Source of the DNA: Promethearchaeota archaeon
Lineage (GTDB): Archaea; Asgardarchaeota; Lokiarchaeia; Sigyniarchaeales; SOKP01
Direction: 5' to 3'
DNA length: 64,000 nt
Assembly: GCA_013375475.1 (NCBI GenBank)
Contig: JABXKD010000001.1
Span: 32,001-96,000, forward strand
The notes under the pieces are model-generated. The model was given only the letters and a program-made list of their open reading frames with translations, was not told the origin of the DNA and made no database searches. The translations under genes were made by a program, and so were the position numbers. Shown here piece by piece: positions 32,636-33,199 of the stretch (positions within the stretch are counted from its first letter, which is position 1; each line of letters starts with the position of its first letter).

Positions 32636-33199
32636 TTAATATTCAATGCCAAAACGAGCTTTAATACCCTTTGAGGAATAATAGTGTTTTATCATTCTCA
32701 TTTCAGTGAGCAAATCTGCTCGTTCCTTTATTTTTGGATGCATCTTAGGTCCTCCAGTGATAATTAGTTCGACTTTTTCTGGCTTATTGTCTATTAGTTT
32801 TAATACATCGTCGATGTTTACAATCCCGTACTCAACTGCTACGCCAATTTCATCAAGAATTACTATATCATATTCGTCATTCATAATGATTTCCTCCGCG
32901 AACTCCATGCCTTTCCTTCCTTCTTCGAAATCAATTTCTCCAGCAGTAGCTATTAAGTCTGACGTGCCAAACTGTTTCAAATAAAAGTTGGGCGTGTTCT
33001 CTATCGCCTTAACTTCACCATATTGAGGATATCCTTTCATGAATTGAATCATAAATACTTTAAATCCGTGTCCCGTGGCTCGAAAACCTTGTCCTAAGGC
33101 TGCTGTGGTCTTGCCTATAAGCACTACTATCATTTATATAGTAATTTTGCCCCGACCAAAATAGACTTGCACAAGTCCTTGTTCTAACCTTTTTCTCAT
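32636..33199 (-). CDS. cobO: Cob(I)alamin adenosyltransferase (CobO/BtuR/CobA type), join(33199..33147,33116..32636), 177 aa after removal of a 30-nt insertion
   Basis: Exon 1 MRKRLEQGLVQVYFGRGK; exon 2 GKTTAALG...IQFMKG...GE...YDIVILDE...ELIITG...ADLLTEM..IKH...G..A..GIEY. GAGGT RBS precedes ATG 33199. Confidence 0.88.
33117..33146 (-). other. Candidate 30-nt bulge-helix-bulge (BHB) intron in cobO mRNA
   Basis: mRNA GGGC-AAA-AUUACUAU-AUAAAUG-AUAGUAGU-GCUU-AUA: 4-bp helix, two 3-nt bulges, 8-bp intron stem, in-frame UAA; canonical excision restores GGC AAA GGC AAG ACC. Confidence 0.75.

Follow-up and report, generated by a model that had tools for sequence, protein, structure and literature searches.

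A probable relaxed bulge-helix-bulge intron in the cobO mRNA of a Lokiarchaeia-type Asgard archaeon

The stretch analysed here (referred to as the window) comprises 64,000 nucleotides (nt) of contig JABXKD010000001.1, positions 32,001 to 96,000, from the ~3.9 Mb genome of a Promethearchaeota (Asgard) archaeon of the Lokiarchaeia type. Its minus strand carries, at 33199-32636, the gene cobO, which is interrupted within the codons of its P-loop. Comparison with related sequences indicates that the 30 nt at 33146-33117 very probably constitute a bulge-helix-bulge (BHB) intron of the relaxed form in the cobO mRNA. An earlier note, made from the letters of the window, had proposed a tRNA-type intron at this place. 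For an intron of the relaxed kind the proposal is supported by a site shared among relatives, by insert lengths that fall in all three phases, by covariation, by selection on both exons, and by orthologues from which the insert is precisely deleted. Moreover, the genome encodes two EndA paralogues and RtcB, and one RNA contig ends at the predicted joint. From these data we infer cleavage and ligation of the cobO transcript as well as the exact cut positions.

The interrupted cobO gene

The cobO ATG is located at 33199-33197 (minus strand), and the P-loop codons GGT CGG GGC AAA occupy 33157-33146. Here the coding sequence is broken by 30 nt (33145-33116, minus strand), which read ATT ACT ATA TAA ATG ATA GTA GTG CTT ATA and contain an in-frame TAA. 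Downstream of the insert the sequence continues with GGC AAG ACC ACA GCA GCC, so that the P-loop is split between GGC AAA and GGC AAG. Read-through translation of the window copy gives ...VYFGRGKITI*MIVVLIGKTTAA.... The open reading frame (ORF) that starts at the internal ATG encodes 165 amino acids (aa) and covers positions 14-172 of the 172 positions of PF02572 (E 7.8e-48). The first 13 positions of the family are absent from this ORF and are encoded in the 18 codons upstream of the insert, while an intron-less orthologue (177 aa) matches positions 2-172 of 172 in a single stretch with 189 bits.

Exon 2 by itself scores 163.4 bits against PF02572 (gathering cut-off 25.7), and the P-loop motif GxGKGKT is present. 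The sequence thus identifies the gene product as an ATP:corrinoid adenosyltransferase of the CobA/CobO/BtuR type. The threshold of the NCBIfam equivalog TIGR00708 is missed (153.3 vs 167.75), and the exact substrate is therefore not fixed by the family match. In this genome, rated 100% complete, cobO is the only CobA-family match, and a search for the PduO-type adenosyltransferase (PF01923) found none, EutT-type enzymes being outside the search. The interrupted cobO is hence the only corrinoid adenosyltransferase recognised in the genome.

Exon 1 (33147-33199, minus strand), which codes for strand 1 and the initial half of the P-loop, starts with the ATG and ends two bases into the Lys codon, after its second A (MRKRLEQGLVQVYFGRG plus AA of K). 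The predicted intron of 30 nt (33117-33146, minus strand) is delimited by a cut behind the second base in either bulge. It is followed by exon 2 (32636-33116, minus strand), which supplies the third Lys base, 159 codons (GKTTAALGQG...FGIEY), and the stop at 32636-32638. Placing the boundaries at 33116-33145 instead gives an identical joined sequence in the window genome. Joining 18 codons from exon 1 to 159 from exon 2 would yield 177 aa. The earlier note had described the exon ends and the insert and had predicted a full-length enzyme of this size: every base matches the window, and the predicted product has the same layout as the intron-less orthologue.

Occurrence of the insert among relatives

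The genus set comprised 42 genomes, 35 of which have cobO at E <=1e-30 and 33 of which have an orthologue readable at the P-loop. Of these 33 orthologues, 13 have an insert at the same base (six of 30 nt and seven of 29 nt), and GRGKGKTTAA is uninterrupted in the remaining 20. When one genome per species across the collection was added, giving 81 distinct Promethearchaeota (Asgard) genome loci, the insert was found in 16 of them at the identical site. It was also found in 21 of 79 readable metagenome contigs (80 retrieved). In total, there are 37 intron-bearing loci with 27 distinct sequences, and the loci are not all independent, as some metagenome contigs may share assemblies with the genomes. 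Inserts at the same position with covarying stems, the pattern that the earlier note had pointed to for an alignment of cobO across relatives, are thus what these 37 loci display.

The lengths of the 27 variants are 29 nt (nine), 30 nt (13), 31 nt (two), 32 nt (two), and 33 nt (one), which represent all three phases and shift the frame in 13 of the 27. In-frame stops occur in the window copy (TAA) and in loci L002, L004, L011, and L012, a list for which the 30-nt forms were checked in part only. The intron-less orthologues correspond to deletions that are precise to the base. An intein and a group I or group II intron were set aside, the insert being just 29-33 nt long and carrying stops. A repeat or mobile element was likewise rejected: the intron covariance model matches only cobO in the window genome (150 of ~7000 first-look candidates scored).

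A tree of exon 2 made by a quick method requires eight parsimony changes for the presence of the insert, of which at least four are forced by well-supported branches. This pattern fits an old intron that was lost repeatedly, or repeated gain. In this context, the allele nearest to the window copy by protein (L131, 96%) is intron-less, and L129 and L130 (92-94%) have an intron identical to that of the window, which indicates that presence and absence change over a very short evolutionary scale.

Selection on both exons

Between intron-bearing orthologues, the ratio of nonsynonymous to synonymous substitution rates (dN/dS) for exon 2 is 0.03-0.12 with dS >1.3. For the 17 codons before the insert, dN is 0-0.14 vs dS of 0.3-2. 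The exon 1 sequence RKRLxxGLVQVYFGRGK is found in 16 of the 16 intron-bearing genome loci. Exon 2 has 159 codons in 15 of them and 158 in one, and no other lesions were seen. These values argue for purifying selection on exon 1 as well as on exon 2. With both exons conserved despite the frameshifts and stops, they could give one protein only if the insert is removed.

The same data bear on whether cobO is a pseudogene here or the insert an assembly artefact. An in-frame stop or a frameshift in the P-loop would be expected of either, and the fold of the single sequence is non-significant (see below). An artefact is excluded by the presence of the insert at the same base in 37 loci from many independent assemblies. 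As to gene decay, dN/dS stays at 0.03-0.12 in the sequence flanking the insert even though dS is saturated, there are no further lesions, and the gene is the only member of the CobA family in a genome rated complete. Taken together, this leaves the combined possibility of pseudogene or artefact with an almost negligible probability, and the remark in the earlier note that the rest of the gene looks intact agrees with these findings.

In addition to the protein, synonymous sites near the insert differ between the two groups of genome loci. For Arg, NGG is used in 15 of the 16 loci with the intron vs 8 of the 65 without it. The first Lys codon is AAA in 16 of 16 vs 28 of 65 (AAG in 37 of 65), and the second Lys codon is AAG in 14 of 16 vs 18 of 65. 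Judged from these codons, constraint on synonymous sites near the intron is limited to the loci that have it.

Structure of the insert in the pre-mRNA

In the predicted structure, the 5′ strand of a 4-bp central helix (H) is exonic and consists of GGGC (33149-33152, minus strand), i.e., the last base of the Arg codon and the Gly codon. It pairs with the intronic 3′ strand GCUU (33119-33122, minus strand), and the variants GCCU, GUCU, GCCC, and AUCU of the 3′ strand retain pairing with the exon strand. In L093, H holds an A-C mismatch. The Lys codon AAA (33146-33148, minus strand) forms the 5′ bulge, with the predicted 5′ cut between 33147 and 33146, and it is AAA in 27 of the 27 distinct intron-bearing sequences. 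The intron hairpin h′ (33123-33145, minus strand) consists of an 8-bp stem, AUUACUAU (33145-33138) paired with AUAGUAGU (33130-33123), and a 7-nt loop (33137-33131). At the 3′ splice site, AUA (33116-33118, minus strand) forms a bulge or loop, with the predicted 3′ cut between 33117 and 33116. A weak outer exon-exon pairing lies within 33106-33161 (minus strand), where the minimum free energy (MFE) structure pairs UGGUC (33158-33154) with GACCA (33110-33106) and RNAalifold pairs 33161-33157 with 33113-33109. This outer pairing is 89.3% paired, shows no compensatory change, and starts 4-8 nt from the 3′ bulge.

The evidence for this structure is comparative. When the structure (outer helix, 4-bp helix, 3-nt bulge, and 8-bp stem) was specified for the 16 genome sequences, 94.5% of the cells were paired, with 98.3% for H and 95.8% for h′, and five of the eight h′ pairs show changes on both sides. 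If the 3′ partners are slid by 1-3 columns, pairing falls to 28-61%. The covariation score was reached by 0 of 500 column shuffles, a test that overstates significance since the related sequences are not independent. Kinship does not, however, touch the compensatory changes as evidence, nor the stem swap in L086, where the stem differs throughout in sequence and is still paired at nine positions. RNAalifold, for which the alignment was the sole input, arrived at the same elements: the helix of 4 bp (columns 18-21 paired with 48-51), the bulge of 3 nt, and the stem of 8 bp. Moreover, when the two insert ends serve as anchors for the 27 sequences, 312 of the 324 cells in the 12 pairs are standard (96%), and the length variation of 29-33 nt is confined to the hairpin loop. 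As read from the alignments, the structure is more than chance, and the evidence for it does not come from the single-sequence fold.

The H-B-h′ half of the motif is present, with its 4-bp helix, the 3-nt bulge on the 5′ strand, and the closing intron helix. The outer pairing adjoins no 3′ bulge, and the motif is for this reason classed as the relaxed HBh′ form. The positions given for helix, bulges, stem, and loop in the earlier note are unchanged. The fold that it proposed is borne out by comparison (covariation and RNAalifold), whereas the 4-bp helix is missing from the single-sequence MFE structure, which retains the 8-bp stem. Its caveats also hold, namely the two G-U pairs, the imperfect exon-side helix, and the lack of a helix that closes the 3′ bulge.

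Cut rule and the joined product

Cleavage after the second base of each bulge, the canonical rule for the archaeal enzyme that the earlier note had applied, would remove 33146-33117 and give GGC AAA GGC AAG. This outcome extends to all relatives with the insert. Among the 27 sequences the second base of the 3′ bulge is variable (U, C, A, or G) and the third is always a purine. As the cut falls after the second base, the third base of the 3′ bulge would complete the Lys codon. Joining then gives AAA (24) or AAG (3) as this codon, that is, Lys in 27 of 27, and the rule restores GRGKGKTTAA in all 27 variants whatever the insert length.

The proposed reaction would proceed as follows. In the pre-mRNA, the exon bases G-GGC pair with GCUU of the intron to form the 4-bp central helix. 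The Lys codon AAA becomes the 3-nt 5′ bulge, which is closed by the 8-bp intron hairpin, and AUA on the opposite strand forms a bulge or internal loop. A heteromeric (alpha-beta)2 EndA would cut after the second base of each bulge. RtcB would then join the exons to ...GGC AAA GGC AAG..., encoding a 177-aa enzyme with the intact P-loop GRGKGKTTAA, and the 30-nt intron would be released, probably as a circle.

An intact protein might also arise if the ribosome were to hop over the insert, as in the programmed bypass of phage T4 gene 60. That bypass uses matched take-off and landing codons and has a stop directly after take-off. The cobO insert does have a hairpin after a Gly-Lys pair that recurs past the gap (GGY AAA ... 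GGY AAR), and a hop would tolerate any insert length. Here, however, a hop between matched codons deletes two residues and leaves GRGKTT, and the GxxGxGKT loop is kept in 81 of 81 loci. There is no stop directly after take-off, the first stop lying three codons past AAA, and neither the exon bases that pair with the end of the insert nor the purine-only last base would be explained. As we know of no translational bypass in archaea either, bypass is at most barely credible for cobO, and the data are better described by RNA splicing.

Splicing enzymes and tRNA introns of the genome

The genome encodes two EndA paralogues (PF01974), located on contigs C215 (200 aa) and C133 (202 aa), and an RtcB on contig C211 (560.7 bits). 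The C215 protein aligns end to end with PDB 3p1z_B, without gaps across a loop that contains the residues KPR, and it has the His. The C133 protein has neither feature: the loop is missing, with eight residues absent there, and Lys takes the place of the His. The KPR stretch presumably holds the loop lysine, which we take to be Lys44 in the A. pernix enzyme. By this comparison C215 is the predicted catalytic EndA subunit with a broad-specificity loop. According to the available text of PMC5829648, cleavage of relaxed motifs is tied to (alpha-beta)2 or epsilon2 enzymes that have an additional loop, and Asgard EndA has the (alpha-beta)2 form with an L1 loop. The enzyme set predicted for the window genome fits this description.

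The genome also offers substrates of the usual kind. Aragorn predicts introns in 22 of 44 tRNA genes, the predicted positions being rough, and many tRNA introns are noted for Asgard genomes in the accessible part of PMC11291895. The cut rule was checked on a tRNA of contig C209: removal of its intron, which is likewise 30 nt long with an 8-bp stem, gives a 72-nt tRNA-Gly(GCC) with the loop UUGCCAA. The junction 37/38 was read by hand from the motif, and the program output states position 36. Among the uncurated tRNA candidates on contigs C209, C11, C222, C252, and C230, several have introns of 27-30 nt with 8-bp stems, some of them at apparently non-canonical positions with no more than one or two exon-exon pairs.

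These features also bear on whether the insert might be removed at the RNA level by some other, hairpin-recognising nuclease and ligase. At the 3′ site the strict BHB motif is not formed, and cleavage by EndA is a prediction here, both of which would leave room for such an activity. Nevertheless, the 5′ half is a textbook H-B-h′ motif, and the geometry, the 30-nt length, and the 8-bp stem match a tRNA intron of the same genome. The EndA subunit bears the loop that the available text of PMC5829648 ties to relaxed substrates, and the introns of crenarchaeal cbf5 are often relaxed as well, according to the portion at hand of PMC2738675. Nothing in the data calls for another nuclease, and we regard its involvement as highly improbable compared with splicing by EndA and RtcB.

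RNA evidence, further introns, and points against splicing

The one metatranscriptome run that was found (0.10 share of words) gave two 151-nt contigs and no reported joint, and the lack of RNA cover elsewhere in the window carries no meaning. One RNA contig (151 nt) aligns to 32971-33116 with one differing letter in 146, and the five letters at its end depart from the window. Unspliced DNA would match onward to 33121. The match ends at 33116, which is the last base shared by the genome and the predicted spliced molecule. The contig differs from the nearest other known allele at no fewer than 8 of 145 positions (at least 8/145) and from the nearest intron-less allele at 13, which assigns it to the population of the window itself. 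Its end at the predicted joint is counted as suggestive only, because five letters are unread and the depth is 3.

Searching for further introns, we ran the intron covariance model across the 42 genus genomes, which gave the 13 cobO introns and two weak matches. One of these (G002:C145:12421-12457, L219 1522-1558; 29.7 bits, E 0.005) is contained in an ORF of 413 aa that is not interrupted and encodes an N-terminal membrane helix, and it was rejected as a chance match. The other is on G019:C84 (E 0.074). The genome was also scanned for coding introns with an exact 4-bp helix, 3-nt bulges, at least four stem pairs, and a length of 14-130 nt, whose removal fuses two open frames with at least 120 codons in total. 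Among 21,283 raw candidates, cobO ranks 40th-43rd overall by stem energy and ninth of the 2,292 candidates of <=40 nt. Every candidate looked at resembled a boundary between genes, a non-coding frame, or genuine coding sequence, the N-terminus of Hsp70 being one example of the last. On contig C173, at ~150-400, a tandemly repeated frame with units like FHAIGGKVYKLLTQLF and a period of ~57 nt gave many false intron candidates.

Several observations weigh against an intron in cobO. No second coding-sequence intron was found among the ~140/141 candidates at <=-4 kcal/mol (three in detail), in a scan that is non-exhaustive since introns and short intergenic gaps are inseparable without homology; other split genes with BHB geometry, which the earlier note had thought worth scanning for, did not emerge, and the cobO case would be a one-off. 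By itself the sequence folds with an MFE of -13.1 kcal/mol (z -0.73), and 48 of 200 shuffles are as good; the significance of the comparative shuffle tests is, as mentioned, overstated by relatedness. The strict hBHBh′ motif is absent, with no pair abutting AUA (G33153 faces G33115), so that cleavage would depend on a broad-specificity enzyme, and two G-U pairs occur in the central helix of the window copy. As to the RNA, there is a single short contig, it does not read the junction letter by letter, and the same picture would arise from an end artefact or from an intron-less strain within this population. Finally, in 26 of 27 variants (count by eye) an ATG, GTG, or TTG precedes exon 2 by 9 nt, and exon 2 could in principle be translated alone.

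This last point leads to a split or truncated enzyme, in which the insert is retained and exon 2 is translated from the NTG 9 nt upstream, with exon 1 unused or giving a separate peptide of ~21 residues in the window copy. The recurrence of NTG at that place and the open 165-aa ORF from the internal ATG, which gene callers would call, are what would be expected. The structure explains the NTG, with the U paired at the h′ base and the G closing H, and L172 has ATA in its place. Strand 1 and the first P-loop half, contiguous in 65 of 65 intron-less loci and in the Pfam profile, would be missing from the product, and yet exon 1 is under purifying selection. The covarying hairpin, the fixed AAA bulge, and the purine-only last intron base would also be left unexplained. 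We find a split enzyme very unlikely on these grounds, and prefer an intron that is removed from the mRNA.

Relation to known systems

A BHB intron in the pre-mRNA of crenarchaeal cbf5 was reportedly described by Watanabe in 2002. The available portion of a later study describes the cbf5 introns of Crenarchaeota as 16-44 bp long and often of a relaxed motif, as disrupting a catalytic codon, and as gained and lost in connection with hetero-oligomeric EndA (Yokobori 2009, PMC2738675). As far as that portion goes, the cobO intron is similar in being short and within a protein-coding gene (29-33 nt vs 16-44 bp), in its relaxed motif, in having lengths of which some keep and others shift the frame, in its patchy gains and losses, and in the hetero-oligomeric EndA of its host. 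In both genes, moreover, the intron interrupts codons of the catalytic or binding site and must be removed. The cobO case differs in the host gene, a P-loop adenosyltransferase, and in the phylum, Promethearchaeota/Asgard. Unlike for cbf5, where splicing was demonstrated by experiment, splicing of cobO is deduced from comparison and one suggestive RNA contig.

According to the part available of a 2020 paper, cbf5 is the only other mRNA with a reported BHB intron beside a case in a 5′ untranslated region (UTR) of Haloferax (PMC7714728). That intron, HVO_1309 of Haloferax volcanii, resembles the one in cobO in having an mRNA substrate outside tRNA and rRNA. It differs, as the same excerpt has it, in its location in the 5′ UTR, where it leaves the reading frame uninterrupted, and in belonging to a euryarchaeon with a homodimeric enzyme (PMC7714728). 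Searches of the full-text literature, a coverage that excludes subscription journals, found no report of an intron in cobO or of an mRNA BHB intron in Asgard archaea. The accessible part of the Asgard genome paper mentions no mRNA intron alongside the tRNA introns (PMC11291895). The statement in the earlier note that mRNA BHB introns are known mainly from cbf5, with none known from cobO or from Asgard archaea, is in agreement with this literature, to which the Haloferax 5′ UTR adds a further case.

With archaeal tRNA introns, the cobO insert shares the 4-bp helix, the 3-nt bulge, and the intron hairpin, and the tRNA-Gly(GCC) intron of its own genome is of the same length and stem. Unlike these, its substrate is an mRNA that has no tRNA body, and its 3′ site is not directly flanked by an exon-exon helix. 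A comparison can also be made with the splicing of HAC1/XBP1 mRNA, in which IRE1 cuts, tRNA ligase or RtcB joins, and the XBP1 intron is 26 nt long. The common features are a very short coding intron, no spliceosome, cuts in stem-loops, RtcB-type ligation, and a change of frame. The nuclease there is IRE1 rather than EndA, and HAC1/XBP1 splicing is a regulated stress switch, whereas any regulation of cobO would be hypothetical.

If the reading of the insert as an intron is correct, cobO would be the second gene family with a BHB intron in its coding sequence, and the first from that group of archaea which is closest to eukaryotes. The 27 natural variants amount to a mutational series with five lengths, a wholesale stem replacement, and constrained exon bases. 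They are well suited to the question of what the Asgard (alpha-beta)2 endonuclease recognises beyond tRNA. Gene callers will label these cobO genes as truncated proteins of 164-169 aa or as pseudogenes, and B12 metabolism will in consequence be under-called in these genomes.

A more far-reaching suggestion is that the intron is not a passenger. Given that the only recognised corrinoid adenosyltransferase would need EndA and RtcB, tRNA-splicing capacity would gate the activation of B12, as an Asgard counterpart of IRE1/RtcB; the earlier note had raised such gating as a possibility. The patchy distribution, in which an intron-less allele of 96% protein identity stands next to alleles with an identical intron, would then reflect RNA-mediated loss and re-insertion at a single P-loop site, and mRNA splicing by the tRNA machinery would be pre-eukaryotic. 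We consider this proposal unlikely. If true, it would mean that cytoplasmic, non-spliceosomal splicing of mRNA by the tRNA machinery predates eukaryotes and is present in their closest archaeal relatives.

Other features of the locus

Directly downstream of cobO, an ORF of 381 aa (31481-32626, minus strand) has its GTG start 10 nt past the cobO stop and is without a Pfam family at E <=0.001. Upstream, GAGGT (33208-33212, minus strand), located 8 nt before the cobO ATG, is a possible ribosome-binding site. In the orthologues L002, L004, and L005, ATT is present at the position of the cobO ATG of the window (ATC ATT AGA AAA...). There is no in-frame ATG upstream in these three, and the RKRL... 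codons after ATT are still conserved. This ATT may be a near-cognate start, or translation may start further in, at the GTG of GLVQV.

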